Part shown: positions 1,303 through 46,723 of the stretch, piece by piece
Layout of the letters: every line of letters begins with the position of its first letter
Position numbering within the stretch: position 1 is the first letter of the stretch
Source: Thermoplasmata archaeon
GTDB taxonomy: Archaea; Thermoplasmatota; Thermoplasmata; RBG-16-68-12; JAGMCJ01
Reading direction: 5' to 3'
DNA: 64,000 bases
NCBI GenBank assembly: GCA_046761045.1
Contig: JBHIFJ010000001.1
Location: 89,785-153,784 of the forward strand
The notes under the pieces: generated by a model
What the model was told of the DNA's origin: nothing
The model's input: the letters and a program-made list of their open reading frames with translations, nothing else
Databases searched by the model: none
Translations under genes and position numbers: made by a program

Positions 1303-4300
1303 ATGGGAAATCTCATGAGAATTGTTTCGAGAGAAAATAGGAATAAGGGCCTGCGCTCGATTGCCCTCATGGCGTTGCTCGTTCTTGGGAGCATTCTAAT
1401 CATGGTATCGCCACAGACAAGAGCTGAGCTGAACCCGCCCGTTCAGGTAGGTCCAGATACTTGGGTGGTAGCAGCAGGTGATTGGGTCATAGAGAATGGT
1501 GACAATATTGTCCACGGAAACAAGACGATATATGTTGAAGCTGGCAACGTCGTGATTGAGAACGGCGGGGCACTGACACTCTACAATGTCACCCTGCAGC
1601 TGAACTCCACTTTCAGCGGGGAGTTCCACATAGAGGTCCAGGATGGCGGAACATTCAGGGTCCTCGACGGTGGAGATGGATACACGCCTTTTGACATGGC
1701 CGACACCGATCAGTCCACACTGCTGGGCAGTCCTTTTGAATTCCAATTTTGGGTGCGAGGTTCGGCGGTCTTTGAGATGAACAATAGCGTCATCGCATTC
1801 ATGGGCGAGACACACCCGCCAGGTCCGCCTCTTCCGACCCTCGAGCCCTACGGACTCTACGTTGAATCCGATAATGTCGTCATCAGAAGGTCGGGAGTCA
1901 TATTCAGTGGCGGAATCATCGCCAACGGGTCAAGCCCTAGGATATACGACTCTGTGTTTGTCATGGGCTGGTTCGGTGTTGCCTCGTTCAACGCTGGAAA
2001 CCCGTACGCGTCGAATCTGTCGGCCAATTCCCTCGAGTATGCGGGTGTCCTTGTCGATGCCTCCTCGATTGAAATCTATGACAGCCGGATTGATTCGACT
2101 GGAGTTGGAGCATTCTTGATGCCCGGGGTCCAATTGGTCAACGGCTCGTATGCATTGGTTTCCAACGTCTCAGTCTCAAACAACGGCAACGGAGGATTGG
2201 TCGTGGAGAACTCACACATTGACCTCTTCGATTCCAGGGTCACAAACAACGGTCCCTGGGGCCTGATCATGCTCGAAGACCAGTACAACCTGTTCACTTC
2301 TGTCGTGCGCAACAACACGTTCAGCCAGCATCCCAATACCGAGATAGTCCTGGATGCCTTTGGAGACTCCGATGTGGTTATAGAACACAACAACATCACC
2401 GCCGATCCTGGGGCGACAGGCATCTGGCTCTCCACAGATAACAACCTGACCGCCTCGCTTGGTTGGAACAATATCACAAGTGGCGACCAGGGCATTGTCG
2501 CAATGGCACAGGAAAACGCCACACTGAACCTCACCGGGAACTGGTTCGAGGGCCTCGCCACACAGGGAGTGCAGACCATCAATTTCGGAGACTGGCAGGA
2601 CCTTGTGGTTTTCAATAACACGTTCTTCAATCTTGGAGGCTTCGGCGGTTCCCACCTCAATCCCGTCGGGGAGCTGTCTGCCGATGTGCAGAGCAATAGC
2701 ATAATCCTGACGGGGGATGCTGGAATCATACTTGGAGCCGAAACACTGGTCACTGCGAATATTGCCGATAACTACGTCATGGCGACTGGAATGACCCCTT
2801 CCATGGCCCCAGCGGGTTTGATCACCTCTTCCAACGGAGACGCTTCTGTCGGCTTCCATGATAACCAGTTCTTTGCCACCTCTGACACTGCCATAATGGC
2901 GCTGGCCACGCGGGACCTGGACATCAATCTCTCATCGAACGCGTGTCTTTGGTGCTCCTCTGGGCCGACCTTCAGTGCCACATCGTTCGTGGCGACCTCG
3001 GGAGGCAATATGAGCGCCAATGTGTACAACAACTCGATAGACCTCACTGGTGCCGGGAACGGTATGAACTTCACTGCCAGCGGACAGTGGGCGACTCTGG
3101 ATTTCGTCGAGAACACGATAACCAACTCTCCTGACAGCGGTATTTACGTCGACCTTCTCTCGCAGTCGGATATTCTGTTCGATTCCAACGATGTCAGCTA
3201 CAATGGTGGGGCCGGTGTCTATGTCACCGTTTCTAACTATGCGAATGTCGTGGCGAGGGACAATCAGTTCTCCAGGAACGCTGTCTACGGACTGGGGATC
3301 GTTGGCGGTGGTCCATTACCGGTGAACCTGACCTTGGAGGACAACTACTTCGTGGCAGACGATGTCATCGGTCTTTGGCTGACCGATATCAACATAAGTT
3401 CCAGGGGGAACTATGTCATCGCATGCAACAACTTCGGCGCTGCCCTATTCCAGGTGGCGGGAACCATGGAGGATGAGGAGTACTCTTTCAACTCCAACGG
3501 CATAATCTTTGATGCAGGTTCACAGGTCGACCTGATAAACTCAACGCTCGACAATGCTGGAGTGGACATCTTCATAGACGGGGACTCTCACATCACTACG
3601 CTGAACACGACATTCGATCGTCTCTTCGGTCTGTTTTTCGGGGATATGCTTTCAAGCATCACGGTGAATTGGTTCCTTCATGTCCGTGTGGAGACCCAAC
3701 AGGCTGTACCTCTCGTGGGGGCCACTGTTGATGTGGAGGACTTCTACCAGACGCCCGTTGCGAGCCGCACAACCGGAGCAGACGGAATGGTGAGATGGAT
3801 GGTCGTGACCGAGTTCCATCTAGAGGGCTTCATATGGACCTACTACACGCCGCACAATATTACCGCGACTCTTGCAGGATTCGGAAGTGGCGTGGCTCAA
3901 CCCAACATGGATGCGACCAAGACGGTGGTCATTCAGCTTGCCGATGTCGAACCCCCTATGGCAGTGGCAAATGACGTGACCGTTGATGAGGACACCCTCT
4001 TCAATCTCGACAGCACGGGCAGTGGCGACAATGTGGCGATAGTGAACTGGACATGGGTCGTGAGTGATATTGGCGGTGATGTCTATCTGTACGGTCCGAA
4101 CCCGTTCTATATGTTCTCGGAGCCCGGAAGCTATGGGGTCAATCTCACGGTGACGGACGCCGCCGGGCTCTCTGGCTGGGACACAGCCACGATTACTGTG
4201 AACGACATCACGGATCCCATTGCGGACGCCGGACCAGATCAGGCGGTGTTCTCTGGGGACCAGGTGTTCTTCGATGGAACGAATTCGACGGACAACGTGG

Positions 4301-5340
4301 GCGTGGTGAACTACACATGGACTTTCACATACGACGGAGGACCGATCAACTTGTGGGGAGCGGCACCAAACTTCACCTTCGTGACTCCTGGCATCTACGA
4401 TGTCACCCTTACTGCTCGCGATGCCGCCGGCAATACTGGATCCGATGCGGTCACCATTACCGTCGAGGACAATGAGGCTCCCGTGGCAGATGCGGGACCT
4501 GACCAACTGAACAATGACGAGGGAACCACGATTTACTTCGATGGAACCGCTTCCACGGACAATGTTGGTATCGTTACCTTCAAATGGGAGTTTGACTACG
4601 GACCCAACCACATAGTCCTCGAGGGAGCAACGCAATCCTTCGTCTTTGAGGCGATTGGTGAGTACACGGTCACCTTGAAAGTAACCGACGGTGTTGGCCT
4701 CTCCGATACAGACACGATGGTCGTGTCCATTGTGGATTCCACTCCGCCAGAAGTCGTCTCGACCTCGCCACCGAATGGGGTGACCGACGTATCAATTGCC
4801 ACGGACTGCGTCATCGTGTTCAGTGAAGCCATGGATACCGATTCGACCGAGATGGCGATATCCATAGAGGGCGCGACGATTAAGAGCTTTGACTGGTCCA
4901 ATGGCGATTCCGTGCTTACTCTAGATCTCTCGGGACTGGAAGAGGACAAGGAGTACACCGTCATAATTGCCGATAACGCCACGGACGTTGAGGGCAATGA
5001 GATCAATGATTATGTTCTGACATTCAGGACCCAACCTCCACCCGCCCTCTTCTCCATGGAGAATGATTGGTGGTGGATCATAATAGTCATCATCCTGATA
5101 GTCGTGATAGCCATACTCGCCCTGAGGAAGCCGAAGGCCCCTGCGCCAACACCACAAGTATATGAGCCTGTGGCGTATGAGCCATCACCGCCGGCCGAGT
5201 ATCCTCTAGATGAACCGGACGAAGCTCCACCAGAGGAGCCACCGGATATGCCAGAGGAAGCTCCGGAGGAAGTGCCCGAACCTCCCGAGGGACCCCCGGA
5301 GGAGGAAGCTCCAGAACCGCCAGAAGAACCCGAGGAATAG
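1303..5340 (+). CDS. Giant secreted/cell-surface protein: signal peptide, parallel beta-helix (NosD/pectate-lyase-like) repeats, 3-4 PKD domains, Ig-like domain, C-terminal TM helix and acidic Pro/Glu-rich cytoplasmic tail
   Basis: 1345 aa; N-term hydrophobic segment ALMALLVLGSILIMVSP; repeated N-x-(I/V) beta-helix turns; PKD signatures (VNYTWTF..GxYxVTLTxxDxxG); TM WWWIIIVIILIVVIAILAL then RKPK and PEEAPEEVPEPPEGPPEEEAPEPPEEPEE. Confidence 0.8.
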   Translation: MGNLMRIVSRENRNKGLRSIALMALLVLGSILIMVSPQTRAELNPPVQVGPDTWVVAAGDWVIENGDNIVHGNKTIYVEAGNVVIENGGALTLYNVTLQLNSTFSGEFHIEVQDGGTFRVLDGGDGYTPFDMADTDQSTLLGSPFEFQFWVRGSAVFEMNNSVIAFMGETHPPGPPLPTLEPYGLYVESDNVVIRRSGVIFSGGIIANGSSPRIYDSVFVMGWFGVASFNAGNPYASNLSANSLEYAGVLVDASSIEIYDSRIDSTGVGAFLMPGVQLVNGSYALVSNVSVSNNGNGGLVVENSHIDLFDSRVTNNGPWGLIMLEDQYNLFTSVVRNNTFSQHPNTEIVLDAFGDSDVVIEHNNITADPGATGIWLSTDNNLTASLGWNNITSGDQGIVAMAQENATLNLTGNWFEGLATQGVQTINFGDWQDLVVFNNTFFNLGGFGGSHLNPVGELSADVQSNSIILTGDAGIILGAETLVTANIADNYVMATGMTPSMAPAGLITSSNGDASVGFHDNQFFATSDTAIMALATRDLDINLSSNACLWCSSGPTFSATSFVATSGGNMSANVYNNSIDLTGAGNGMNFTASGQWATLDFVENTITNSPDSGIYVDLLSQSDILFDSNDVSYNGGAGVYVTVSNYANVVARDNQFSRNAVYGLGIVGGGPLPVNLTLEDNYFVADDVIGLWLTDINISSRGNYVIACNNFGAALFQVAGTMEDEEYSFNSNGIIFDAGSQVDLINSTLDNAGVDIFIDGDSHITTLNTTFDRLFGLFFGDMLSSITVNWFLHVRVETQQAVPLVGATVDVEDFYQTPVASRTTGADGMVRWMVVTEFHLEGFIWTYYTPHNITATLAGFGSGVAQPNMDATKTVVIQLADVEPPMAVANDVTVDEDTLFNLDSTGSGDNVAIVNWTWVVSDIGGDVYLYGPNPFYMFSEPGSYGVNLTVTDAAGLSGWDTATITVNDITDPIADAGPDQAVFSGDQVFFDGTNSTDNVGVVNYTWTFTYDGGPINLWGAAPNFTFVTPGIYDVTLTARDAAGNTGSDAVTITVEDNEAPVADAGPDQLNNDEGTTIYFDGTASTDNVGIVTFKWEFDYGPNHIVLEGATQSFVFEAIGEYTVTLKVTDGVGLSDTDTMVVSIVDSTPPEVVSTSPPNGVTDVSIATDCVIVFSEAMDTDSTEMAISIEGATIKSFDWSNGDSVLTLDLSGLEEDKEYTVIIADNATDVEGNEINDYVLTFRTQPPPALFSMENDWWWIIIVIILIVVIAILALRKPKAPAPTPQVYEPVAYEPSPPAEYPLDEPDEAPPEEPPDMPEEAPEEVPEPPEGPPEEEAPEPPEEPEE

Positions 5341-5381
5341 GCGAGGAGCTCGCATCCCTCATACAGGGAAGGAGACTACCA

Positions 5382-5612
5382 ATGAAAGGTGAGACTCGAA
5401 AGGTCAGCAGAGAGACTGCCGAAAGGATGATAATGGAGATTCTGAAGGAGGGCAAGCCTCTCACGACAATAGAGATCGAGAAAAGGTTCCGGTCGGAAAA
5501 AGCCGAGTGTCCGGATTCCGCTGCGCTTTTCCTCAACAAGATGAGGTTGCAGGGCAAGATTTGCGGGAAGCTGTCCGTGGAACACAAGGGCTGGCTCTGG
5601 TGGATCGCCTAG
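5382..5612 (+). CDS. Small (76 aa) hypothetical protein, possible winged-helix DNA-binding protein
   Basis: ORF preceded by GGAAGGAG Shine-Dalgarno-like sequence; protein-like composition; no recognisable family. Confidence 0.45.
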   Translation: MKGETRKVSRETAERMIMEILKEGKPLTTIEIEKRFRSEKAECPDSAALFLNKMRLQGKICGKLSVEHKGWLWWIA

Positions 5613-6880
5613 GGTGCCGTCCATAGATGCGTTTCCACCGTCTGCTGGGTCGCCCGCCATATGATCGAGAACTGATAGTCGTGACCGCTTGTCACGTTGA
5701 TCACGAATGAGTCTCCGACCGTGAAGAGACCGTCGGAATCCATGTCATAGAACGTGATATTTCCCGCGGTCGCGCCGTCTGCAAGAGGGTCCATCCTGTC
5801 GGTCTCGTTCAAGTCCGTGAGGAGGGAGGCTCCATACAGACCAAAGTCAACGGCTTCCGAGACGAAGAAGACAGTTATGCTGTATGTGCCTGGCCCCTGC
5901 GGCACGCCCGATATCGAAACCTCAGGGACGGATGATGTGGGCGTCCCCGATGCGGGGTTGGACTCCGGACCCTCGTTTCCCTGAGCATCCACAGCGCTTA
6001 CGGTGTAAGTGTACTCCTGCCCATTGCTCAGGCCAGTGTCAAGGAACCAAGTTGTCGCTGGCTCGTCCAGCAGCTTCAATCCATCCCTGTAGATATGGTA
6101 CTTAACCACGCCAATGTTGTCCGTCGCAGGAGACCATGTGAGGTTGAGTTTGCCATCCTTCTCATCCGTCACCATCAGTCCCGTCACCTTGGACGGGGGT
6201 TCCGAGTCGTATTCCGTGGGTGTCCCTGTTGCGGGAACAGACCTCTGGCCTTCGTTTCCTGAGGTGTCGACAGCGCTCACTTCATATGTGTAGTTCCGGT
6301 AATTGGTGAGCCCTGAATCGACAAAGTATGTGTTCACGGGCTCCTGATCGAGCCTCACACCGTCCCTGTAGACATTGTAGTGCGAGATGCCAACATTGTC
6401 GAATGCCGGGTTCCAGGTCAGATTCAGCTTCCCATTGTGGACATTCATAACTTCGAGCCCATCGACCCTGCCTGGAGGGACATTGTCCGAGGGTGTCGGG
6501 GTGCCCCAAGCAGAATTCGACTTCTCGCCCTCGTTGCCAGAGCTGTCCACTGCCCTTACCTGATAGACGTATGAGACCCAGTTGACCAGTGAAGCGTCAA
6601 CGAAGAAGGGGTAGGAGGGCTCCGTGGGCAGCATGTTGCCATCCCTGAATACCTGGTATCTGTCCACCTTCCGATTATCAGTGGCCTCGTCCCAGAATAG
6701 AAAGAGCTTGCCATCGTGCATGTCGTACACCTCGAGACCCTCCACCTTGCTCGGTGGGGTGGTATCCTCTGGAAGTTCGAGGTGGAGGACATACAACATC
6801 GTGGAAACGATTATCGCGGCCACTACAATGATGACGAAGAACGCGATGTATCTATGCCTCGTGCTTCTGTCCTCCTCCAT
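5609..6880 (-). CDS. Membrane-anchored (N-terminal TM) protein with three to four fibronectin type III domains
   Basis: 423 aa; TM YIAFFVIIVVAAIIVSTMLYVL; repeated PPSKVxGLxVxDxxDGKLxLxWxxAxDNxxVxxYxxYRDG FN3 signatures. Confidence 0.75.
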   Translation of the reverse strand: MEEDRSTRHRYIAFFVIIVVAAIIVSTMLYVLHLELPEDTTPPSKVEGLEVYDMHDGKLFLFWDEATDNRKVDRYQVFRDGNMLPTEPSYPFFVDASLVNWVSYVYQVRAVDSSGNEGEKSNSAWGTPTPSDNVPPGRVDGLEVMNVHNGKLNLTWNPAFDNVGISHYNVYRDGVRLDQEPVNTYFVDSGLTNYRNYTYEVSAVDTSGNEGQRSVPATGTPTEYDSEPPSKVTGLMVTDEKDGKLNLTWSPATDNIGVVKYHIYRDGLKLLDEPATTWFLDTGLSNGQEYTYTVSAVDAQGNEGPESNPASGTPTSSVPEVSISGVPQGPGTYSITVFFVSEAVDFGLYGASLLTDLNETDRMDPLADGATAGNITFYDMDSDGLFTVGDSFVINVTSGHDYQFSIIWRATQQTVETHLWTAP

Positions 6881-7848: not shown

Positions 7849-8103
7849 ATGTTGGAGGAAATTTCTGAGGTCATAGGGCTGCAGGTTTACACCCACAATG
7901 GGATCTATCTAGGTAACGTGAACAACCTGATTGTGGACGTTGAGAACTCCACTGTCGATAGACTGTTCATCGGAGAACCCAACCCTCTTCTGGTGGAGGG
8001 GTCCAAGTCCGTAGCCGTTCCCTACCGTTGGATCCAGAGCGTGGGCGACATCGTAATCCTCAAGTACTTTCCCAAGCGGGTGAGCATGAAGAAGGGAAAG
8101 TAG
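7849..8103 (+). CDS. PRC-barrel domain protein
   Basis: 84 aa; typical archaeal PRC-barrel pattern (..GxxVYTxxGxxLGxVxDLxxDxxxxxVxxLxIG..). Confidence 0.65.
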   Translation: MLEEISEVIGLQVYTHNGIYLGNVNNLIVDVENSTVDRLFIGEPNPLLVEGSKSVAVPYRWIQSVGDIVILKYFPKRVSMKKGK

Positions 8104-8219
8104 CCCAGGAACGTTTTTAAGTCCCATAGCCATACTCGGACTCATGGTGCATGCCGAATCCTCTGAGGCGGGGGTCTTTTTTGCGGGGAATGGCGCGTTC
8201 CGAAGCTGAGGGAGTGTGG

Positions 8220-8618
8220 ATGAGGTACCGCTTTGAGATTCTTGATGTCGAAGTCCTCCACAGCCACGAAGGGATAGACCCTGAAATGCTCGAGTGCCTC
8301 GTTGAGCGGATAGCCAAGGATGGTGCCCTCTTCAAGCCCATCGTTGTCGATGACAGGAACAACGTCATATTGGACGGCCACCATAGGTTCGAGGCCCTCA
8401 AGAGGCTCGGATGCAGAAGGATTCCGGCTTACTTGGTCGACTACATGGACGATGCTGTGGAAGTCGTCACTTGGCCTGGAGCAGTCGTCAATGAGATCTC
8501 GAAGGCCGACATAATCGAGATGGGCCTAAGCGACAATGTCTACCCGCCAAAGACATCCAGGCATATCATCAAGGTCGCACTGGAGGACAGGACCGTGGAC
8601 CTCGCAGAGCTACGCTAG
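8220..8618 (+). CDS. ParB-like nuclease (ParB/Srx N-terminal) domain protein
   Basis: RFEILDVEVLHSHEG...KPIVVDDRNNVILDGHHRFEALKRLG matches ParB N-domain (ILDGHHR); ORF begins at 8151 but internal ATG 8220 (MRYRFEIL) preferred. Confidence 0.6.
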   Translation: MRYRFEILDVEVLHSHEGIDPEMLECLVERIAKDGALFKPIVVDDRNNVILDGHHRFEALKRLGCRRIPAYLVDYMDDAVEVVTWPGAVVNEISKADIIEMGLSDNVYPPKTSRHIIKVALEDRTVDLAELR

Positions 8619-9274
8619 TCCTCCTCCTTTGGCCGGGACTCCATGAACCAGATCGAGAACAGCATGATTACGCAGACCACGAAGGCGATGTGCCACCCGA
8701 TTGAGGGCCCCCAGGTCGTGGTCACGCTCATTGTGGGCGTCTCATTCAGGTCCGTGTCCGCGAAGGTCTGGATGTTCGGAAGGATCGTGTCAAGGGCGCT
8801 TCCCAGACCAACTCGTGAATCTCCCACTGCAGGGGGGACCTTCGCATGCAGGTAGGCGGCGGAACCCAGGACGAGGAATATTACCGCGAATCCAACAACC
8901 AGGGCTATCATTCTTAGACGTTGCCGTGAGCGGGACAGGTGATAGAGGACGAGCGAGAGCAGGATGAGGATCATCGCCGTTGTCACAAGGGCGAGCATGA
9001 CGAGGAAATGCGTGTCGAGACCGGAGTTCTGGATATCCGCATAGGAGGTGTCCCACCTCCTCTCGTTTGACACACCCAGGGTCGTGTCCTTGTTGTATGA
9101 CGAGATACTGAGAAGCCTGAATTCATGCGTGCTGTTGACGTATACGGACGGATACATCGTGGGAGACTTCTCTCTGCGTTCAATCGTCCACCAAGGAAGG
9201 AAGAGGCTCGAAGCGAGTATCGCTATGCAAATGATCGCGAGGACAGCCCCGATCTGAAACTTGCCGATTTTCAT
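8615..9274 (-). CDS. Integral membrane protein, unknown function
   Basis: 219 aa, 4-5 predicted TM helices. Confidence 0.55.
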   Translation of the reverse strand: MKIGKFQIGAVLAIICIAILASSLFLPWWTIERREKSPTMYPSVYVNSTHEFRLLSISSYNKDTTLGVSNERRWDTSYADIQNSGLDTHFLVMLALVTTAMILILLSLVLYHLSRSRQRLRMIALVVGFAVIFLVLGSAAYLHAKVPPAVGDSRVGLGSALDTILPNIQTFADTDLNETPTMSVTTTWGPSIGWHIAFVVCVIMLFSIWFMESRPKEED

Positions 9275-9306
9275 GCGTGCTCACCTATCATTCTCTTTCG
9301 GCTATA

Positions 9307-10365
9307 TCACCATATTGCTCTCCCACAGAGTGGACATGTCATCTGCCCCTCTGGTATGTCGGACCCGCATCTCCTGCACACGCGCTTGACCTCCACGGCT
9401 CGAACTCGGTCAGTCGCCTCCCGGGACCGCCTCTTCAGAAGGATGATGACTGCCACGACAATGAGCATGATGATTATCAGCGTGATCAAGAGGAACTCAA
9501 GACCGCTCCCCCTGGTGGGGCTTTCCACATATGATAACAGGTTCCACTCTCCCACGAGGGCCGTCCTGTTGTCATAGACCTCGACCCTGACGTTGTTGTT
9601 CACGTTCTCTGAGTAGTATTCTTTCCTCTGGCCGCCGGGGAACCCGAAGAGGTATATTCCCGGTGAGGACGCATTGACCTCATACGCTTCGAACTCTCCC
9701 GCCTCGACCGTCACGTTCAGATGATCCGTGCATTCGTATGTCTGATTGTATGCGTATCTGACCGTCGTCTCGTTCTCCTCCACGAGAGTCCCGCTCATGC
9801 CAACTGAGTATCTGGCATGACTGAGCCCTTCGCCCGATGCTGAGCCCGCCGAGCCCACGTCGAACGGGAAATCCCATGTGTCGCTCAGAATGGCTAGGTA
9901 GGTCTCGGCCTCCAGCAGTAGACTGAAGGTGACGGAAAACCTGCGAAAGTTGGACGTTATCGTGAGAGAGGTCATGACGTATTCGAAGGAGTCGTTGTCC
10001 AGGTAGAGAGTGCCCTCGCTTACGGCGGGTGCGGTTATGAGGAATGTGCCCGTATCCGGAATGGTGTAGGCGAATTCCACGTCAAAGTCGCCTTCCAGTT
10101 CGATGACCCATGCATCATATGAGTGGTTCAGGACCTCTACCGTCTGCCTCGACACCACTGTAAGGTTAACGGTGCCCTCGAGATCCACATCCTGCATGCC
10201 CTCTTCCATTTCGCTCACGAGGTCACCCAAGGAGATGGAAACGGAGTACTTCCAGGTGTTTCCGACAGAGATGGTCGGAGCATGGGCCTGTGCCATCGCG
10301 TTTCCTGTGCCCCCGAAAGACAGCAGCAGAAACAATAGCAACGAGAACAGTCGCCTCAAGGACAT
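9307..10365 (-). CDS. Secreted surface protein with signal peptide, C-terminal TM anchor and cytoplasmic Cys4 zinc ribbon
   Basis: N-term MSLRRLFSLLLFLLLSFGGTGNAMA; C-term LLITLIIIMLIVVAVIILLKRRSR...CRRCGSDIPEGQMTCPLCG. Confidence 0.7.
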   Translation of the reverse strand: MSLRRLFSLLLFLLLSFGGTGNAMAQAHAPTISVGNTWKYSVSISLGDLVSEMEEGMQDVDLEGTVNLTVVSRQTVEVLNHSYDAWVIELEGDFDVEFAYTIPDTGTFLITAPAVSEGTLYLDNDSFEYVMTSLTITSNFRRFSVTFSLLLEAETYLAILSDTWDFPFDVGSAGSASGEGLSHARYSVGMSGTLVEENETTVRYAYNQTYECTDHLNVTVEAGEFEAYEVNASSPGIYLFGFPGGQRKEYYSENVNNNVRVEVYDNRTALVGEWNLLSYVESPTRGSGLEFLLITLIIIMLIVVAVIILLKRRSREATDRVRAVEVKRVCRRCGSDIPEGQMTCPLCGRAIW

Positions 10366-10414
10366 CCTCCGCTCAACCCAGTCAATAGATTGCGGGGATA
10401 TAAGTAGTTAGGGT

Positions 10415-11440
10415 CTACAAGAGCGAGTCCAGGTCTGTTCCGCAAAGCCTGCTCAGCTCGTCGTGCAGCCGCCTCATCCGCCTTGCCGCAGCGAGGAGTC
10501 CCCTCCTCTTCAATTGACTCACAAGCGCGTCAATCTCGCCCTCCTCCACAAGGTTGTCGGCGTGCGAAACGACCTTCTGTTCAAGCGTTCGGGGAATATA
10601 GCTCCTCACGGGCAGGCCGAGTCTTCTCGCCTCATCCCTGGCGATGCCCGCCCCTACATGCCTCTCCGCTATCTCGACTAGGACCTCTGGGAATCCTCTC
10701 TCCCTGAGGATATGGGCTCCCACCACACCGTGGTCTATGCCGTGAGTTCTACCCCGACCGATGTCATGGAGTAGGCCGCCCAAGGCGCAGACCTCCTCAT
10801 CAGCACCACAGAACCCGGCAATCTTCCTCGCCAGCCTCGACACCCTCTTGCAGTGAATAACCACGCCCCCGTCGCATCCTGCTTCCTGGAGCGCCCTCAG
10901 GCACGCTTTGCGAGAGGGGAGGTCCTCGGATCTATCGATGACCATCTTGCCGCGTTTGGAGGGGACTATCCTCATCCTTCCTTTGAAGTCCACCTCCAGC
11001 GGCTTTCCGCCGAGAAGCCTGTCCAGGAACACCGCCAACGCGGCGACCTCGGAATGAGGCTGGTTGCCCACCGAGACGTTGAAGTCTGCGAGGTCGTAGA
11101 CCTCGGCAGGGACCTTCTCCCCTCCAATCACGATGAGCAGGTCCTCCTCGCCGATTTTCGGAACCGCATCCTTCAGCCTCTCCCCATACATTGTGAGATG
11201 GACGATGGTGCCCTTCCATTCCTTCAGCGTCTTCCTCCAGTTGACTCCCGTGGAGACGTGGAACTCACCGCCAAATTTCCGTACAACATTCCTGACGCTA
11301 TTCTCCAGTGCCGTGTCCCTTGTGGAGACCATCATGCAGTCCGCGCCGAAGGCCCTGGCGACAAGCGCGACATGGGTGGTGATCCTGCGGTCTCTTGGAA
11401 TCCTGTGACCCAGCCTGAGAACGGAAATCATTCTTCCCAC
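10415..11440 (-). CDS. trm56: tRNA (cytidine56-2'-O)-methyltransferase Trm56 (SPOUT) fused to C-terminal HD phosphohydrolase domain
   Basis: N-term ISVLRLGHRIPRDRRITTHVALVARAFGA typical of aTrm56; C-term LHDIGR...H..D HD-domain motifs. Confidence 0.7.
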   Translation of the reverse strand: MGRMISVLRLGHRIPRDRRITTHVALVARAFGADCMMVSTRDTALENSVRNVVRKFGGEFHVSTGVNWRKTLKEWKGTIVHLTMYGERLKDAVPKIGEEDLLIVIGGEKVPAEVYDLADFNVSVGNQPHSEVAALAVFLDRLLGGKPLEVDFKGRMRIVPSKRGKMVIDRSEDLPSRKACLRALQEAGCDGGVVIHCKRVSRLARKIAGFCGADEEVCALGGLLHDIGRGRTHGIDHGVVGAHILRERGFPEVLVEIAERHVGAGIARDEARRLGLPVRSYIPRTLEQKVVSHADNLVEEGEIDALVSQLKRRGLLAAARRMRRLHDELSRLCGTDLDSLL

Positions 11441-11937
11441 ATCATAGAATAGAGAAACAGGGCGACGCTTGCATTGGTTAGTATCATGATTATGAAGACA
11501 GGAAACGCCTTCAGTATGTCGCTTCGGAAGGTCAACGCCGTTGCTATGATGAGAAGCACAAGGGTCCCGAGGAAGATTCCCGCCAGAAAGTGGGCCCCCC
11601 TCTCTGTCATGGATTTCGGCCTTATCGTCAAGTCGTCAAGCAAGTAGAAGAGGGCGACGAGAGCGGAGACGACCAATGCGGCCAAGGAGAGGATGAACTG
11701 AGTTGTCTCCCAGACCTGGATGACGAAGAAGTAGAAGAAAATCGCTAGGCCCACGAAACCTATCCCTGAGACCAACGCCAGCTTGCTCCTGTCGAACTCG
11801 TCCGCAAGTATCGGTATGTCCTCGAGATTCTCGATCTCTTCGACGGAGGAGGGCACGTTTTCGAATGGATTCTCCTCGAATGATGGCTCATCCTGAATGG
11901 GCCGATTCTCGAATGGATTCTCGGAATCACCCTTCAT
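11428..11937 (-). CDS. Membrane protein with acidic repetitive N-terminus (ENPFEN repeats)
   Basis: 169 aa; 4 TM helices after acidic N-term region. Confidence 0.55.
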   Translation of the reverse strand: MKGDSENPFENRPIQDEPSFEENPFENVPSSVEEIENLEDIPILADEFDRSKLALVSGIGFVGLAIFFYFFVIQVWETTQFILSLAALVVSALVALFYLLDDLTIRPKSMTERGAHFLAGIFLGTLVLLIIATALTFRSDILKAFPVFIIMILTNASVALFLYSMMWEE

Positions 11938-11948
11938 ACGAGGTGCTC

Positions 11949-16985: not shown

Positions 16986-17018
16986 CCATACATTTTAAGG
17001 GCAGAAGCACATTTAGGG

Positions 17019-17475: not shown

Positions 17476-17480
17476 CTCTC

Positions 17481-32745: not shown

Positions 32746-33870
32746 TTGGCCATGCCAGAGGACAAGACGAAGTGTGAGGTTTGCGGTCATCTGAATCCTC
32801 GGAGAGCAGAGTTCTGCGAAGGGTGTGGAGTCAAGCTCGAAATCGCAGAGGACGAGGAGGACATAGACCGGTTATTGAAGGAGCTCGTCGAGGTTGAGGC
32901 CCCCGCAGCTGGTGCCGATGAGGCTCTCGACTTGGACAAGGAGATTGTCGACGAGCTTCTGGACTCCCTTCTCATCGAGGAAGAGGGAGAGCTCTTCGAG
33001 TGTCCTGTCTGCAGTGCCATGATTCCCGTTGAATCCACCGTCTGTTCTGAGTGCGGAACCGAGTTCGCTGAGCTGCTTGAGACGCCACGGAAGAGGGCCG
33101 AGGCCATCGAAGAGATCGAAGTTCCAATCGAGGAGGAAGCCCCGGTCAAGGTCGAGGTCTCCGAGAAGGTTCCCAAGCTCACCATCTCCAGCGCGAGGAT
33201 GATTGATGGAGTGGTTGTTGGGACGATTGCGGCGCTCGTGGTCGTCTTCACAGTCTTCAGGATGTGGGACTGGAATGCCTATTCCGAGAGCCTGACCCCT
33301 CTCCTAGTCTTCGCAGGCGTTGCGGTCATCGGAACGCTGCTCGGATTCGTATTCTTCAGGATAAGTACCTCTGCGGTCGCTCAGGGGGACAGGCTCGTGA
33401 AGGACGGGCAGTTCCTTGAGGCCATCCAGTACTACAACAGGGCCATTCGGATAGGCTCGAGACCCGCGACCGCATGGACATCCAAGGGTGTGGCATACAA
33501 GAGGTTGAAGCAATACGACGAGGCGCTCAAGTGCCATGAGATTGCATTGAAGATGGACCCGAAGAACGAGATCGCTTGGACCAACAAGGGCGATGTGCTG
33601 TTCAGGCTTGAGCGGTACGACGAGGCCCTCGAGGCGTTTGACAAGGCGCTGGAGATCAGGCCGAGATACGCTATCGCGTGGAACAACAAGGGCGCCACCC
33701 TTGCTCGAATGGGAAGGTTCGAGGAAGCGAAGAAGTGCCACGACGAGGCGATCAAGATAAGGCCGCGGTACACCGCCGCCTGGCTGAATCGCGGGGAGGT
33801 TCTCGTGAGGCTTGGTGACAGGGACGAAGCTGCCAAGTGCCTCCAGAGGGCGAAGGCACTGGGAGCCTAG
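32746..33870 (+). CDS. Membrane protein with two N-terminal Cys4 zinc ribbons, one TM segment and C-terminal TPR repeats
   Basis: CEVCGH...CEGCG and CPVCSA...CSECG; TPR consensus (W..KG.AL..LG.Y.EA...FDKALEI.P) x5. Confidence 0.75.
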   Translation: MAMPEDKTKCEVCGHLNPRRAEFCEGCGVKLEIAEDEEDIDRLLKELVEVEAPAAGADEALDLDKEIVDELLDSLLIEEEGELFECPVCSAMIPVESTVCSECGTEFAELLETPRKRAEAIEEIEVPIEEEAPVKVEVSEKVPKLTISSARMIDGVVVGTIAALVVVFTVFRMWDWNAYSESLTPLLVFAGVAVIGTLLGFVFFRISTSAVAQGDRLVKDGQFLEAIQYYNRAIRIGSRPATAWTSKGVAYKRLKQYDEALKCHEIALKMDPKNEIAWTNKGDVLFRLERYDEALEAFDKALEIRPRYAIAWNNKGATLARMGRFEEAKKCHDEAIKIRPRYTAAWLNRGEVLVRLGDRDEAAKCLQRAKALGA

Positions 33871-35061: not shown

Positions 35062-35652
35062 GTGAATGGGACCGAAGAGGAATCAATGAAAGTGAAGATT
35101 TGCCTGGTTGGTGACTTCCAGGTCGGGAAGACCAGCCTCATTAGGCGCTTCGTCCTTGACGAGTTCGATGACAGGTACCTCGAGACGATCGGCACGAAGG
35201 TGACGAAGAAGACCGTCAATGTCGACCATCCGGGCGGAGAGGACTTGCTGCGCGTCAAGCTGCTCATATGGGATATAATGGGCCGCAAGGAGTTCGGCGA
35301 CCTTCTGCGCGATGCCTACTTCTACGGTGCGAAGGGCATAATCGCCGTCTGCGACCTGACGAGACCCGAGACGGTCGAGAGCGTGCGGGAATGGATAGAT
35401 TCCGTCGTCCGCGTGACGGGCAGGGTCCCAATCCACATTCTTGGGAACAAGGCGGACCTCGAGCGCAAGGTTGACGAGCAGGCAATCGCGGACCTCGCAT
35501 CATCATACGACTCGCCGCATCATCTGACCAGCGCCAAGACGGGTTTGAACGTCGAGCTGGCTTTCGCAGATATGGCTCTGAGAACCTCAGCTCAGTACTA
35601 CGGTCTGCCGGAGGTTGGGTCGGGGGAGAGGGCTACCGCGCCGGTGGATTGA
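35062..35652 (+). CDS. Ras-superfamily small GTPase (Rab/Ras-like)
   Basis: G1 GDFQVGKTS, switch II WDIMGRKEF (DxxG, no catalytic Gln), G4 NKAD, G5 TSAKTG. Confidence 0.85.
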   Translation: MNGTEEESMKVKICLVGDFQVGKTSLIRRFVLDEFDDRYLETIGTKVTKKTVNVDHPGGEDLLRVKLLIWDIMGRKEFGDLLRDAYFYGAKGIIAVCDLTRPETVESVREWIDSVVRVTGRVPIHILGNKADLERKVDEQAIADLASSYDSPHHLTSAKTGLNVELAFADMALRTSAQYYGLPEVGSGERATAPVD

Positions 35653-35791: not shown

Positions 35792-38700
35792 ATGTCTGAG
35801 AACAGAAAGGTTTCGATAAGTGCGATAGTGGTGATGGTTTTTGTGTTAGGGCTATTCTCTCCGATGAGCCAACACGCTCGAGCAGCCATACCAGTACCTC
35901 ACAACCTCTATGGGCACGCATGGGATGTGAATGGAGTGAACTACACTCCCGGTTTCTACATATCGGCGTGGATAGATGGTGTGGAGTACGGATGGAATTT
36001 GACCTTTGACGACCTTCTTGACCCTGGTTGGCCAAACTTCAACTATTCCAGCAAGATCGACATCGACACGGCAGGCAATCAGGTCACGATTCCTAGTGAC
36101 CCTGACACACCTTGGGTGAAAGAGGGTGGCGATCAAGGTGTCGATGACATAATGTACGTCGAGGGGGACATGACGGAACTCGTGACAGGGGGGATGGGCA
36201 GCAACATATTTGAGAACACAACAGTCTGGCAGACCTTTGTCTCAGAGTACATCGACCTCACGATGGCTACAATACAGCCACCAGCGCTACCCAAGATAAA
36301 CAATGTCGTGACACAGCCCGGTGACATGGGAACCCAGTACATTTACATCTACGGCCCAGAGGGCACGCCAATGGATGAGTTCTACCTGGAGAAGAACGAT
36401 GGAGTGCTCCACAATGCGGCCACACAGATATTCCTCTCTGGAACGATTTCAGAAACCAAGTACTTCTACGTCGACCTGGGAGCGGTTGACTATCTTGACC
36501 CGAATGGGGATGAGCTGAAGCTGCTTTGGGAGAACCCAGGAGGTCCAGGAGCGCCCTTTGGCGGGATGGACGTGGTCGTCGACAGAGTGGAGTACAACGC
36601 GACATCCGGCGGGACGCATTTCGGAGAGCCTGACAACACAATCATGCCAGATGCCATCGCGCCAGGGATGGGCCTCGACATTCACCGGATACCGTTTGCG
36701 GGAGACGACACGAATGACTGCTCCGTCGACTTCCTTAGCGGCACCGAACCTGGAAGACCGCCCACAGCACCCTACCCACTCAAAGTCGAAGTGCTAGGTG
36801 TGGCGAATGGCCCAGGGGAGACTATCGATCATGTGGTCAATAGAGTGAATCCCCTTCTTGAGTGGACACATAACGACCCAGATGTCCCTCCCCTTCCCCC
36901 GTTCGGATACAAGGTTGAAATCGCAAACGACTCCGCCTTCAGCGACATAAGGTGGGCGAGCTATCAGACCTCAAGTGGTGCGGAATCGGAGAATTACGGC
37001 GGTCCATATCTCACGGAAGGAGCCTGCTTCTACTACAGGGCAAGAACGAAGGACGCCTATGATTACGGACCCTGGGCAAACACAACGGTTTGCATGAACA
37101 CGCCGCCGCCCGTTCCAATGACGATCTATCCGCACAACGAGACGGTAGACCCAATCAACTTGTCAATGAACTGGAGCCTTGTCTCCGATGCCGAGGGGGA
37201 CACTGTCACATATCACGTACAGGCAGACGAAGACAGTGCGTTCAGCCTTCCACCCTTCTTCACCGATGAGTCCGTTCCGGTCAATGAATCGACGGGAAAG
37301 AACTACAACGCACAGACGACATACTACTGGCGTGTGAGGGCGTACGACGGGTATGAATACTCAGCCTGGAGCAATGATCCCTGGTACTGGTGGTTCAATA
37401 CCACGAACCCGCCCCTTGAACCATGGGTCGAGTTCATGGCCGTGGAAGGCTGGTATGCTCCCAGCATGGAAGCCGACCACATCACGAATCGCGTCAATCC
37501 CACATTCAACTGGACATTCATGGACGGCAACCTCGGTGACAACCAGCAGGCATTCAATGCGGAGCTCCGAGATCAGCCCAGTGGAGGAGGAAACCTCATC
37601 TGGTTCACCACCGGCGGGGCTGCGGAACAGGTCACGTACGATGGAGCACCTCTCAGCGAGTGTACTAACTACTACTTCCGCGTGGAGGTTCAGGATGACT
37701 CACCTAGCCAGCTATGGAGCCTCACCTGGGAAGAGATCGCCTTCCACACGAACTGTGTTCCAACCGTTCCAGTGCTGAATCTGCCGGCCAATCAGAGCGC
37801 CCTCAACGAGAATATGAACGAGCAGGTTTTCTGGATCGCCTCCAGCGATGACGATCCGTTTGACTTCATCTCATATGAATGGGTCGTCGACACGGAGTGT
37901 CCAGCTGTCGCTCCCTATTTCGCAAGCGGCTCGACCACGAACACGTTCTCCGATCCGTTTGACACGACGGGCATGGGTCCAACTACCTTCTACTGGACGG
38001 TGCGTGCGAACGATACCTGGGAGTACAGCGCTTGGGCCGGTTGCTACGAGTTCGATGTCCTGCAGCCAAATGAGCGACCTCTGGCTGCCACGAACTTGGC
38101 GGTCGACGGGTTCACTGCGGCACCCGAGATCACGCACCTGCTGAATCTGCTTCCCACATTTACATGGACATTCAACGACCCTGACCCGGGTGACACCCAG
38201 GGTGGGAGGCATGTTGAGGTCAATCTGGGTCCCGGTGGAGCTAACAACATCTGGTGGTCAAACACAACAGACCCGGCGGAGTCGGTTGACTATCCACCGA
38301 CAGCCCAGCCCCTGGTCATGTGCCAGGACTACTACTTCCGAGTGCTGACCAGGGATGCCGGAGGCCTGTGGGCGGCCGACACCGACTGGGCGGAGATTCT
38401 CTTCCATACGAACTGCGAGCCTGATGTGCCTGTTCTAGCGGACCCGCAGGATGGCAACGTAACCACTCCTGACGCTGCACAGACACTGACTTGGCAGCCC
38501 TCGTCCGATGGAGACAGTGACACCGTGACCTACAACCTTGAGGTGTCAACCGACTCGAGCATGACTCCAATCGTTCATCAGGACACGACCACGACGACCT
38601 CGTCTAGCTTCACGACGACATCTGGCGAATGCTACTGGTGGCGCGTGAACGGCACGGACGGGTATGTCTATACGGCCTGGAGCACGGTATGGAGCTTCTG

Positions 38701-39898
38701 CGTGAATAACCCGCCTGACGCACCCACCGATCTTGCTGTGGATGGCTTCTCGTTACCGCCTAATGTGACGCACATCCGCGTGAGCGAGCCAGCACTGAGC
38801 TGGAACTACTCAGACCCAGACGGCGACGCGCAGACTGAGTTCGAGGTCGAGGTTCAGAATGACACTGGAGTTCCGATTTGGACCTACTCGGAGTTGAGCG
38901 CTTCTGAAACAGTGGACTACAACGCCGACGGGACGGCTCCGGCATTCGTGCCCGGAGACTCGTACTCCTTCCGTGTGAGGACGAAAGACGCAAGCATGTG
39001 GAGTGCTTGGTCAGCGCTGCTGCAGTTCGAGCTGAGCGCACCACCACCGGCTCCAATACTGACTGACCCAGCGGATGCCGCCACGGGTGTGTCATTCACT
39101 CCGACTCTCAACTGGACCTCCGGCGGCGACGATCCCAACGGAGATTCTGTGACCTACCACTGGTACCTCGACAACGAGACATCAGTGACTTATCCATGGA
39201 TTGAGAACGACACCACAGCCCTCTTGACGGCCACGGTGAGCACACAACTCGATGGTTCCACGACATACTACTGGAGGGTCTGTGCTGAAGACGGATGGGA
39301 GCAGCCCCAGTGCTCGGCAATCCGGTCCTTCACGACGCAGGTGCCAGCAAACATTGCGCCAACGGCGAACGCCGGGGGACCATACGAGGTGACCGAGGAC
39401 ACGCAGCTGACCCTCAGCGGTTCTGGAACAGACACAGATGGCACGATAGTCCTGTATGAATGGGACTTCGAGGACGATGGTACATGGGATTCCAGCAGTT
39501 CCACCTCGGGCACTGCAACGCATACCTACACCGAGCCAGGGACATACACAGCCCGATTGAGGGTGACAGACGACGACGGAGCCACTGGCGAGGCCACGGC
39601 GACGGTGACAGTGAAGGAGAAGGCACCCGCTCCTGACTTCCTAGGCGAGTATTGGTGGATACTCCTCATCATCATAATCATCGTAATCCTACTCCTCATC
39701 CTCCTCGCAAAGAGGAAGAAGCCTGAGGAGGAAGGGATCGAGGAGGAGGAAATGGAAGTGCCCGCCGTGGAGGAGGAAGTCCCTCCCGAAGAGGAGGAAG
39801 CGGCCGAGGAAAAGGCCGAGATGAAGGAGTGCCCCAACTGCGGAACCGTCCTTGCAGCGGACGATACAGAGTGCTTCATGTGTGGGGCAAAGGTCTAG
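35792..39898 (+). CDS. Giant secreted surface protein (1368 aa): signal peptide, ~10 FN3-like domains, C-terminal PKD domain, TM helix, acidic Glu-rich cytoplasmic tail and terminal Cys4 zinc ribbon
   Basis: N-term VVMVFVLGLFSPMSQHARA; recurrent YYWRVRAxDxxxYSAWS and FHTNC motifs; PKD EWDFEDDGTWD...TARLRVTDDDG; TM WWILLIIIIIVILLLILLA KRKKP; EEEGIEEEEMEVP...; CPNCG...CFMCG. Confidence 0.85.
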   Translation: MSENRKVSISAIVVMVFVLGLFSPMSQHARAAIPVPHNLYGHAWDVNGVNYTPGFYISAWIDGVEYGWNLTFDDLLDPGWPNFNYSSKIDIDTAGNQVTIPSDPDTPWVKEGGDQGVDDIMYVEGDMTELVTGGMGSNIFENTTVWQTFVSEYIDLTMATIQPPALPKINNVVTQPGDMGTQYIYIYGPEGTPMDEFYLEKNDGVLHNAATQIFLSGTISETKYFYVDLGAVDYLDPNGDELKLLWENPGGPGAPFGGMDVVVDRVEYNATSGGTHFGEPDNTIMPDAIAPGMGLDIHRIPFAGDDTNDCSVDFLSGTEPGRPPTAPYPLKVEVLGVANGPGETIDHVVNRVNPLLEWTHNDPDVPPLPPFGYKVEIANDSAFSDIRWASYQTSSGAESENYGGPYLTEGACFYYRARTKDAYDYGPWANTTVCMNTPPPVPMTIYPHNETVDPINLSMNWSLVSDAEGDTVTYHVQADEDSAFSLPPFFTDESVPVNESTGKNYNAQTTYYWRVRAYDGYEYSAWSNDPWYWWFNTTNPPLEPWVEFMAVEGWYAPSMEADHITNRVNPTFNWTFMDGNLGDNQQAFNAELRDQPSGGGNLIWFTTGGAAEQVTYDGAPLSECTNYYFRVEVQDDSPSQLWSLTWEEIAFHTNCVPTVPVLNLPANQSALNENMNEQVFWIASSDDDPFDFISYEWVVDTECPAVAPYFASGSTTNTFSDPFDTTGMGPTTFYWTVRANDTWEYSAWAGCYEFDVLQPNERPLAATNLAVDGFTAAPEITHLLNLLPTFTWTFNDPDPGDTQGGRHVEVNLGPGGANNIWWSNTTDPAESVDYPPTAQPLVMCQDYYFRVLTRDAGGLWAADTDWAEILFHTNCEPDVPVLADPQDGNVTTPDAAQTLTWQPSSDGDSDTVTYNLEVSTDSSMTPIVHQDTTTTTSSSFTTTSGECYWWRVNGTDGYVYTAWSTVWSFCVNNPPDAPTDLAVDGFSLPPNVTHIRVSEPALSWNYSDPDGDAQTEFEVEVQNDTGVPIWTYSELSASETVDYNADGTAPAFVPGDSYSFRVRTKDASMWSAWSALLQFELSAPPPAPILTDPADAATGVSFTPTLNWTSGGDDPNGDSVTYHWYLDNETSVTYPWIENDTTALLTATVSTQLDGSTTYYWRVCAEDGWEQPQCSAIRSFTTQVPANIAPTANAGGPYEVTEDTQLTLSGSGTDTDGTIVLYEWDFEDDGTWDSSSSTSGTATHTYTEPGTYTARLRVTDDDGATGEATATVTVKEKAPAPDFLGEYWWILLIIIIIVILLLILLAKRKKPEEEGIEEEEMEVPAVEEEVPPEEEEAAEEKAEMKECPNCGTVLAADDTECFMCGAKV

Positions 39899-41602: not shown

Positions 41603-42424
41603 TTATTCCTTTGGCTTCCTGGGCCTCTGGAAGGTCTGTCTCCAGAGACCGCGGAAGCGCCTCCACCTGCGCTCCATCCAGGGCCAGGTTCCCGGGTTCT
41701 CCTCTAGGTAGAACATGAGGGCGAGGAACGCGAAGATGACGCTGAGGACGATCAGCAGGTAGAAGGGCCACATGGGGATGGGTTCCTTGACCCCGAAGCT
41801 CGAGTCCGGGATGATTCCGTCGACGCCGAGATACGTGAGACAGATATCACCCTTCGTCTCGTTCGCGTTGCAGTTCTCCACATTAGTATCGTTCGTCGCG
41901 TCTTCCCACTGCTTGTCGGTGAAGTAGCCCCTCGAGGCCATGACATAGTGTCCCGGCCCCGATTCATTTACGTAGTCAAACTCCAACCAGAAGCGGACGA
42001 AGTAGGCTCCTTGATCGAAGATCGTGCCCCGCGTCGTGTGCACGGATGTCATGATGTTCACAGTCAAGGTCCTAAAGTTGTCCCCTTCCAGAGTTCCGTT
42101 GATGTCGAAAGGCGGGAAGGTGAACTCCTGCTCCAGGTTGTTCTGTATGTAGGGCGTGTCCCAGCTCGAGTTCACGACCTTCTCGACGCTGGCGCTCTTG
42201 AACATGTAGATGCTCATGGTCAACGATACGTTCGTCATGTCGTTCTCGTTCTCGTTGACGACGTCGAAACTGAAGGGTCCCGACTCTCTGGGGGCGAGCT
42301 GGGGCGTGCTGAAGTTGGAGAGAAGCTTGTTCACCCGGTCCACTCTCGTCGGATCATCGGCTGCCGCTACGTGCGGAATTAGAAGCACAACTAGGAGCAA
42401 AAGCACGAGAGCCTGGAGGCGCAT
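41603..42424 (-). CDS. Secreted protein with signal peptide and C-terminal TM anchor
   Basis: MRLQALVLLLLVVLLIPHVAAA; C-term WPFYLLIVLSVIFAFLALMFYL + basic tail. Confidence 0.6.
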   Translation of the reverse strand: MRLQALVLLLLVVLLIPHVAAADDPTRVDRVNKLLSNFSTPQLAPRESGPFSFDVVNENENDMTNVSLTMSIYMFKSASVEKVVNSSWDTPYIQNNLEQEFTFPPFDINGTLEGDNFRTLTVNIMTSVHTTRGTIFDQGAYFVRFWLEFDYVNESGPGHYVMASRGYFTDKQWEDATNDTNVENCNANETKGDICLTYLGVDGIIPDSSFGVKEPIPMWPFYLLIVLSVIFAFLALMFYLEENPGTWPWMERRWRRFRGLWRQTFQRPRKPKE

Positions 42425-46462: not shown

Positions 46463-46723
46463 ATGTATTGCCCAAAATGCGGAGCTGAGGTCGAGGAGAA
46501 GGCAACCTACTGTCCTCGCTGCGGACACCGAATCAAGCCGAAATCAGGGAAGTTCGTGGACGACGCTGGACGAATCACAGGTGAGGCCATAGAGGGTGCT
46601 GTGGACCTCACGGAGAAGGCCTATGAGAAGACGAAGCCCGTCGTCAAAAGCGCAGCGAAGAAGACGAAGGGGCTCGTGAAAGGTGTCGCCAAGAAGCTCA
46701 AGGGGGACGAAGAAAAGTCTTAA
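46463..46723 (+). CDS. Small zinc-ribbon protein with Lys-rich tail
   Basis: MYCPKCGAEVEEKATYCPRCG. Confidence 0.5.
   Translation: MYCPKCGAEVEEKATYCPRCGHRIKPKSGKFVDDAGRITGEAIEGAVDLTEKAYEKTKPVVKSAAKKTKGLVKGVAKKLKGDEEKS

Follow-up and report, generated by a model that had tools for sequence, protein, structure and literature searches.

Predicted cytoplasmic tails and C-terminal zinc ribbons on adhesin-like surface proteins of a Thermoplasmata archaeon, a candidate docking module

Three genes in a 64 kb stretch of DNA from an uncultured Thermoplasmata archaeon (the window, within which all positions are given) encode proteins, termed A, B and C, that read as type I membrane-anchored, adhesin-like surface proteins. 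Their C-terminal ends follow a common module order, comprising a very hydrophobic transmembrane (TM) helix, a lysine/arginine (K/R) stop-transfer cluster and a spacer, predicted to be disordered, that is usually polyanionic and rich in E, P and A; B and C add to this one Cys4 zinc ribbon formed by the last 22–25 residues. We estimate at about one in two the probability that the ribbon serves as a knob on a tether for docking of a protein or for self-association, coupling or clustering surface proteins from inside the cell. This small knob would sit beneath the membrane at the end of a flexible tether of some tens of residues and act via a cytoplasmic or membrane-proximal partner, or via other ribbons, with the acidic spacer holding it off the anionic membrane and nucleic acids. 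The ribbon-less Pro/Glu tail of A, with its short conserved motifs, would represent a second tail type following the same logic. A preliminary description of the sequence had noted a recurrent architecture of a single TM helix followed by an acidic tail and/or a Cys4 ribbon, and this is borne out by the sequences of A, B and C. On our reading, it is the topology of the proteins and the conservation, portability, modelled fold (AlphaFold2 and Foldseek) and charge of the ribbon that favour docking.

Approximately ten secreted or surface proteins are predicted in the window, interspersed with housekeeping genes including those for a proteasome beta subunit, Trm56, ProRS, TyrRS and an Lhr-type helicase. 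The closest genome loci are from Thermoplasmata or Thermoplasmatota metagenome-assembled genomes (MAGs); compared loci are numbered with the prefix L and homologous proteins with the prefix P. Protein A (1303..5340, forward strand, 1345 aa) comprises a signal peptide, a beta-helix/NosD region, three PKD domains, one Big_5 domain, a TM helix and an acidic tail. Protein B (35792..39898, forward strand, 1368 aa) comprises a signal peptide, a conserved 320-aa N-terminal domain, Ig_Rha78A_N repeats, a PKD domain, a TM helix, a linker and a ribbon, and protein C (9307..10365, reverse strand, 352 aa) a signal peptide, a 264-aa ectodomain with a weak DUF3108-like match, a TM helix, a basic linker and a ribbon.

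The topology of the three proteins was judged from signal peptide, hydropathy, K/R distribution, counts of N-glycosylation sequons and Cys placement. All of them conform to the pattern of a type I bitopic protein, with a cleavable-looking signal peptide, one later TM helix, positive charges inside and sequons in the N-terminal part. The signal peptides have a basic n-region and a hydrophobic core, and the mature part is preceded by TRA, ARA or AMA; the late single TM helix has a Kyte-Doolittle hydropathy of 3.2–3.7 and is directly followed by three to four K/R, as against none to two before it. Sequon density ranges from 1.9 to 3.0 per 100 aa in the ectodomains, which is 2–3 times the shuffled/composition-matched expectation, compared with 0.43 in nine cytoplasmic control proteins, and no sequons were found in the tails. 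A, B and C are probably N-glycosylated. Every Cys in the tails of B and C belongs to the Cys4 motif. Given the signal peptides, the strong single TM helix with its K/R cluster, the outside-only sequons and the confinement of tail Cys to the Cys4 motif, there is a high probability that the tails are cytoplasmic, in agreement with their earlier placement. Including the K/R cluster, they measure 71 aa in A, 62 aa in B and ~42 aa in C. No PGF motif precedes the TM helix in A, B or C, which read ...SMENDWWW, ...FLGEYWW and ...RGSGLEF there, no open reading frame (ORF) in the window has a PGF-like C-terminus, and NCBIfam matches at E ≤ 0.1 included no CTERM sorting model (TIGR04126-type). With these absences and the length of the tails, the proposed distinction from PGF-CTERM/archaeosortase sorting holds.

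The tail of B follows the TM helix YWWILLIIIIIVILLLILLA (aa 1287–1306) with its stop-transfer sequence KRKK (39650..39721, forward strand), and consists of a 36-aa polyacidic linker (39722..39829) and the Cys4 ribbon CPNCGTVLAADDTECFMCGAKV (39830..39895), the last 22 residues of the protein, recognised by Pfam, orthologue identity and structure modelling. The arrangement reported at first reading, TM-KRKK(P), acidic linker and CPNCG..CFMCG, was recovered in full. An AlphaFold2 (AF2) run on the alignment of B-type tails returned a TM helix at residues 2–28 with a predicted local distance difference test (pLDDT) score of 85–95, a linker at residues ~30–60 with pLDDT below 50, which is predicted to be disordered, and a two-hairpin ribbon at residues 61–87 with pLDDT 82–87. 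Orthologues of B, which are 57–60% identical overall, retain the TM helix, AKRKKPEEE, the acidic linker and K/TKECPxCGTxxxxxDxECFxCGAxL. Identity to these orthologues is 88–96% in the ribbon, 66–77% in the N-terminal domain and 45–57% in the middle, and linker length among homologues ranges from 40 to 88 aa. A second family of ~1,050-residue proteins (P0021–P0032) occupies the genomic position of B, directly upstream of ProRS, and has in common with B just the 320-residue N-terminal domain and the tail, the repeat-rich middle being replaced. In these positional orthologues the ribbon is 56–68% identical and the middle 25–29%.

In protein C, the TM helix (aa 289–310) and the stop-transfer sequence KRRSR (9421..9501, reverse strand) are separated by a basic linker of 14 aa from the C-terminal ribbon CRRCGSDIPEGQMTCPLCGRAIW (9310..9378), likewise matching the KRRSR plus CRRCG..CPLCG ending described earlier. 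Orthologues of C are 49–59% identical overall, and carry CRRCGxxIxxGQxxCPxCGRxI nearly unaltered behind a variable linker; invariant positions make up 58% of the ribbon columns, compared with 31% for the ectodomain and 12% for the linker. Syntenic orthologues are present in L007 and L010, and the name given to C orthologues by NCBI is 'zinc ribbon domain-containing protein'. Judged from these alignments, the ribbon is constrained more strongly than any other part of B and C, and purifying selection acts on it. The preliminary description had named generic low complexity without conservation in orthologues as one finding that would undo its proposal, and the tails are in fact conserved in orthologues.

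The spacing C-x2-C-x10-C-x2-C is found in B, in C, twice in a protein termed D (described below) and in a small ORF at 46463–46723. The Pfam families matched by the ribbons are Zn_Ribbon_1, Zn_ribbon_3 and DZR (PF13240, PF13248 and PF12773, respectively). Scores relative to the gathering cut-offs are slightly low for B (Zn_ribbon_3, 25.4 versus 27 bits; Zn_Ribbon_1, 19.2 versus 25) and C (Zn_Ribbon_1, 23.7 versus 25), and above them for D (DZR, 39.0 versus 27.3; Zn_Ribbon_1, 26.6 versus 25) and the small ORF (Zn_Ribbon_1, 37.6 versus 25). Precomputed database matches to PF13240 or PF13248 exist for the C orthologues and for B itself, and among related tails 26/57 and 21/57 match ribbon models at E ≤ 1e-4. 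When every ORF of 40 aa or more in the six frames of the 64 kb was scanned for CxxC-x(6-25)-CxxC, there were seven occurrences, six of them in long ORFs taken as genes, the one at 46463–46723 included, and the expected chance of a Cys4 motif is of the order of 1e-5 per 60-aa tail at ~1% Cys.

A profile of the B-type tail, a search proposed with the original observation, was compared with 1.84 billion cluster representatives and yielded 934 matches at E ≤ 1e-3, including 75 at E ≤ 1e-10. Among the best 150 of the 934 matches, 146 were proteins new to the set, and these were classified by layout. The bitopic class (59/146) has a single TM helix, a K/R cluster, a low-complexity linker and a ribbon ending 4–9 residues before the C-terminus; the others are proteins that combine several TM helices with a terminal ribbon (6), multi-ribbon and mostly soluble proteins (67) and other layouts (14). 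Linkers of the 59 single-TM tails are E/P/A-rich and 37–98 aa long (median 54), with a median of four K+R at the TM exit and a negative net charge in 47/59 (median -9). The x10 knuckle spacing occurs in 58 of these tails, and the net charge of the ribbon is zero or negative in 54. Ectodomains of the tail-bearing proteins most often contain Big_5 (32/57), followed by PKD, fn3, He_PIG, beta-helix/NosD, GLUG, cadherin-like and CopC domains, and the ribbon is nearly letter-identical in at least 12 cluster representatives that are <50% identical overall (the FIPCPNCGTMVKPTDAECFVCGAKL subtype). In L018, two tandem beta-helix/PKD paralogues (8001–13187 and 13701–19061) share an identical 79-residue tail stretch from EELLA to the C-terminus. 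The two differ in TM helix, stop-transfer cluster and the end of the ectodomain nearest the membrane, a pattern suggestive of gene conversion or recent duplication. In L019, an archaeal contig with MCM and NMD3, two of five clustered surface proteins carry ribbon tails. Named sources of tail-bearing proteins are Thermoplasmata, Thermoplasmatota and Methanomassiliicoccales MAGs. By these comparisons of sequence, the same tail module is reused, both in tandem paralogues and behind many ectodomains that are unrelated to one another.

Protein A, as far as can be read from its sequence, is a ribbon-less surface protein of type I. Its C-terminal part reads ...DWWWIIIVIILIVVIAILAL-RKPK, with the TM helix WWWIIIVIILIVVIAILAL at aa 1256–1274 (5068..5136, forward strand, including the stop-transfer RKPK), and is followed by a tail of 67 aa (5137..5337) with 23 Pro, 21 Glu, no Cys and a net charge of about -23. 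The tail had been described as about 80 residues of Pro/Glu-rich repeats; the TM-RKPK sequence and the Pro/Glu richness stand, while the length is 67 aa and the repeats are a matter of biased composition, as Tandem Repeats Finder detected no tandem repeat in the DNA of the tail. The motifs VYEPV(A/G)Y, EAPPEEP and a terminal EPPEEPE(E/D) are kept, and the tail is 61–70% identical to that of orthologues, compared with 52–53% for the ectodomain. A ribbon is absent from A and from its orthologues (52–53% identical), which end in PEEPE(E/D), and the zinc ribbon that the general pattern might have implied for A was therefore not confirmed. Loss of a ribbon through a frameshift or stop was considered and rejected, since ORFs 3' of position 5340 lack Cys4 and the orthologues are likewise ribbon-less. 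Directly 3' of A lies a 76-aa ORF (5382–5612, forward strand) that is a called gene in L001 and has no Pfam match. In L012, a 1,382-aa protein (1683–5831) adjoining a paralogue with a two-ribbon tail ends in a D/E/P-rich tail that is very long and lacks a ribbon, which mirrors A and indicates that ribbon-less acidic tails recur in other lineages too.

The best Foldseek matches of the modelled ribbon against the PDB are RanBP2/NZF-type fingers, with an rmsd of 0.6–0.9 Å over 25 residues, and include Nup153 or RanBP2 with Ran-GDP, TRABID NZF1 with di-ubiquitin, RYBP and the ArnA finger with ArnB. The acidity of ribbon and spacer in the B type argues against binding of DNA, RNA or lipid; the basic ribbon of C may bind nucleic acid or lipid. 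Several points weigh against a docking knob. The Foldseek E-values of 0.5–2 are not significant, because the domain is just ~25 residues, and no significant match was obtained when a profile of the tail was run against solved structures (best E = 0.08). Binding of Zn2+ by the ribbons is a prediction. The conserved letters of the ribbon largely coincide with the generic Zn_Ribbon_1 consensus (CPxCG...FCxxCG), and conservation could be due to folding and not to an interface. Among homologues of B with 45–48% identity, P0013 and P0015-18 have a short, ribbon-less TM-RRRRR tail, ending TM-KRRRRRGEDSEIQEES, and further homologues have no TM helix and end in a different C-terminal beta-rich domain. 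Because B homologues carry these other ends, the ribbon tail is one of several interchangeable C-terminal modules and, with the ribbon-less A family, they imply that the ribbon is dispensable for the job of the ectodomain. Lastly, the co-occurring cytoplasmic partner genes that the preliminary description suggested looking for did not emerge, in that no gene near the tail-bearing genes is consistently linked across the compared loci.

The chief alternative, possible though doubtful, is that the tail is a passive rivet, a charged segment with an optional zinc cap that hinders ectodomain and TM helix from being pulled out and engages no partner; in a variant, the tail could stop the C-terminus from slipping through the translocon. 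Such a rivet would be consistent with the free variation of linker length and sequence, with conserved residues that coincide with the generic fold consensus, with the lack of a partner gene conserved across loci, and with the varied ribbon-less tails of related proteins: acidic in A, short RRRRR in P0013 and P0015-18, and basic in the comparator protein E (41603..42424, reverse strand), which has a signal peptide, a TM helix and a 33-aa basic tail, with syntenic orthologues in L013, L016 and L017. A stopper, however, could do without a specific sequence. In B and C no segment is better conserved than the ribbon, which is near letter-identical across clusters that are <50% identical overall, and a plug has no need of a 40–100-aa spacer. 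We consider it improbable that the tails are membrane-tethered regulators, in which the ribbon binds DNA or RNA and the ectodomain signals, possibly with proteolytic release. This hypothesis has been published for the mirror-image architecture in Gram-positive bacteria, where N-terminal ribbon-TM-YARHG proteins were proposed to be membrane-tethered transcription factors (PMC3355149), and it suits the present tails poorly. It gains from the basic ribbon and linker of C (ribbon net charge +3) and from RanBP2-type fingers, some of which bind single-stranded RNA (ZRANB2), and is opposed by the strongly acidic ribbon and linker of the B type, by the absence of a helix-turn-helix or other DNA-binding domain from the tail, and by ectodomains that consist of adhesin-like/Ig-like repeats with no sensor domains. 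A single 25-residue ribbon is, moreover, a weak binder of nucleic acid on its own. Least probable is an absence of specific function, with the tails as drifting low-complexity leftovers and Cys4 motifs arising by chance or decaying. The low complexity of the linkers and the Pfam scores of B and C, 1–6 bits under the gathering cut-offs, would fit this; the chance expectation given above, a ribbon that is best conserved across orthologues, positional orthologues and paralogues, its confident AF2 model and the 934 profile matches do not, and the conservation data effectively refute it.

If the ribbon is a docking knob, the genomic context offers one lead to a partner, which is not evidence. The gene for a Ras-family small GTPase (35062..35652, forward strand; Pfam Ras, 2e-33) precedes B by 139 bp in the same orientation, which makes the GTPase a candidate on context only. 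Its adjacency to B is kept in the closest relative, L016, along with D and the long coiled-coil protein next to D, and no GTPase lies upstream of the B orthologues in L013 and L017. No shared cytoplasmic gene was found near the tail-bearing genes of L012 and L018–L020. A second GTPase of the Ras/Roc family (56164–56790, reverse strand; Pfam Ras, 2e-23) is located between two surface-protein genes of the window. As a long shot, the tail might be an address tag that an adaptor in the cytoplasm, such as a Ras-superfamily GTPase or an ArnB/Sec23-24-like protein, would recognise, in a cargo-clustering or surface-positioning system of Thermoplasmatota, comparable to the reading of Ran-GDP by Nup153 fingers and of ArnB by ArnA; protein D, with two ribbons, a membrane hairpin and a TPR scaffold, could belong to this hub as well. 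For C, a 219-aa protein with four TM helices (8615–9274, reverse strand) is encoded 33 bp downstream on the same strand, possibly in an operon with C, and the pair is kept in L001 and L010. The last residues of this protein likewise form a short acidic tail (ESRPKEED; in L010, ...EEEPEEEPED). Being itself a membrane protein, it was rejected as a partner of C.

There is ample precedent for cytoplasmic ribbons on bitopic membrane proteins, for the most part N-terminal ones in Gram-positives, and ribbons of PF13240, PF13248 and PF12773 are routinely fused to such proteins, so that calling the present ones unusual was an overstatement. YARHG proteins, S. aureus TcaA and B. subtilis YdjG carry the same Pfam ribbon families at the free cytoplasmic end of a bitopic protein. 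The bacterial ribbons, found mainly in Firmicutes/Gram-positive organisms, are N-terminal on type II proteins without a signal peptide, whereas the present ones are at the extreme C-terminus of type I proteins with a signal peptide, behind a long polyanionic spacer, in archaeal hosts and on adhesin-like Ig, PKD and beta-helix ectodomains. It is this extreme C-terminal ribbon behind a polyanionic tether on archaeal adhesin-like proteins, together with its modular reuse, that is set apart here. No description of a C-terminal or cytoplasmic ribbon on archaeal surface or adhesin-like proteins was found in the literature searched, a coverage that left out most subscription journals.

Among archaeal systems, PGF-CTERM/archaeosortase A substrates are likewise surface glycoproteins whose C-terminus has a hydrophobic helix with basic residues behind it. 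They have few residues, basic ones, after the helix, as opposed to about 41–71 aa in the present tails (with a folded domain in B and C), for which no sign of cleavage or lipid attachment was seen. Methanobacteriales adhesin-like proteins (ALPs) resemble the present proteins in being huge and repeat-rich, with right-handed beta-helix and Ig-like ('Big') domains and a K/R-flanked TM helix; as described, they mostly have an N-terminal anchor, and zinc is not mentioned in the ALP paper. The RanBP2/NZF pattern is W-x-C-x2-C-x3-N-x6-C-x2-C, with a conserved Asn and a conserved Trp before the first Cys. B reads KECPNCGTVLAADDTECFMCG, without the hallmark Trp or Asn, and zf-RanBP is absent from the Pfam matches at E ≤ 0.01; by sequence the window ribbons are outside the RanBP2 family, while fold and Cys spacing agree. 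RanBP2/NZF fingers are small modules for protein docking and belong to soluble proteins, in contrast to the present ribbons on membrane proteins. The zinc finger of ArnA from Sulfolobus acidocaldarius, bound to ArnB in a co-crystal, provides a docking module in an archaeon (PMC12852372; PDB 8s05), and is like the present ribbons in C-x2-C-x10-C-x2-C spacing and two-hairpin fold. For heliorhodopsins of Thermoplasmatales, recruitment of partners by an N-terminal, cytoplasm-facing Cys4 ribbon has been proposed (Bulzu et al. 2021 preprint). These belong to the same lineage as the present tails and differ in a polytopic host, N-terminal position, zinc_ribbon_4 type and CxxC-x17-CxxC spacing. The present motif is Cys4 and C-terminal, not an N-terminal HxxxCxxC, and no zf-HC2 (zinc anti-sigma) match was obtained. 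Zinc-binding anti-sigma factors (ZAS) combine an N-terminal HxxxCxxC with a cognate extracytoplasmic function (ECF) sigma factor, and to our knowledge archaea have no sigma factors.

Discussion of archaeal surface and adhesin-like proteins mostly centres on what lies outside the cell and on a small number of sorting signals, PGF-CTERM among them. The tail would add a second, widespread C-terminal solution, found in dozens of clusters, of TM helix, charged disordered tether and cytoplasmic zinc knob. If docking is true, it would be a simple device for inside-outside coupling, by which surface proteins could be positioned, clustered or turned over in lineages of which many have no rigid wall, and a testable function would be gained for a mini-domain that, among the uncharacterised ones of prokaryotic membrane proteins, is one of the commonest. 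If the tail is a mere rivet, it would still aid annotation as a signature of type I surface proteins in Thermoplasmatota metagenomes.

Protein D (32746..33870, forward strand, 374 aa) contains two N-terminal Cys4 ribbons of the Pfam DZR type (32773–32829, aa 10–28; 33001–33057, aa 86–104), an acidic spacer, a hairpin of two TM helices (33199–33258, aa 152–171; 33301–33357, aa 186–204) and C-terminal TPR repeats (33385–33867). Two ribbons N-terminal of a TM helix had been reported correctly for D. Its grouping with the surface proteins did not hold, since two adjacent TM helices followed by TPR repeats make it, on the predicted topology, a hairpin-anchored protein facing the cytoplasm with both ends inside. 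An orthologue of D is found in the same gene order in L016. Divergent from D is the gene for a 594-aa E/K/R-rich coiled-coil protein (31006–32790, reverse strand) that has no Pfam match and may be a membrane-proximal scaffold; the pair is kept in L016. The small ORF at 46463..46723 (forward strand), overlooked in the preliminary description, encodes a ribbon protein of the same family with the ribbon at its N-terminus, a Lys-rich tail and no TM helix, predicted to be free in the cytoplasm.

A C-terminal domain of ~110 aa is common to three secreted proteins without a TM helix (51753–53651, forward strand; 53648–56320, reverse strand; 57371–60745, forward strand), one of which is an M28 peptidase and another of which has a CARDB domain. 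The domain, also present in L010 (12692–17425) and in P0033-36 and P0055, has no Pfam match and follows the pattern ...GYWI.V...L.AGWNLVGFP...VEG...P..L...L.PG.GYWIEV...W.I.N. It stands in place of the TM-ribbon tail in some homologues of the N-terminal domain family of B, and may be an alternative attachment or sorting module. Small PRC-barrel proteins have lately been linked to cell division in archaea, and a stand-alone PRC-barrel protein (7849–8103, forward strand; Pfam PRC, 1e-12) adjoins a ParB_N-like protein (8151–8618, forward strand) in the window. Near the end of the window, a multi-TM protein (62088–63557, forward strand) carries a C-terminal DUF835 (Pfam, 1e-33) as a membrane-linked cytoplasmic domain.

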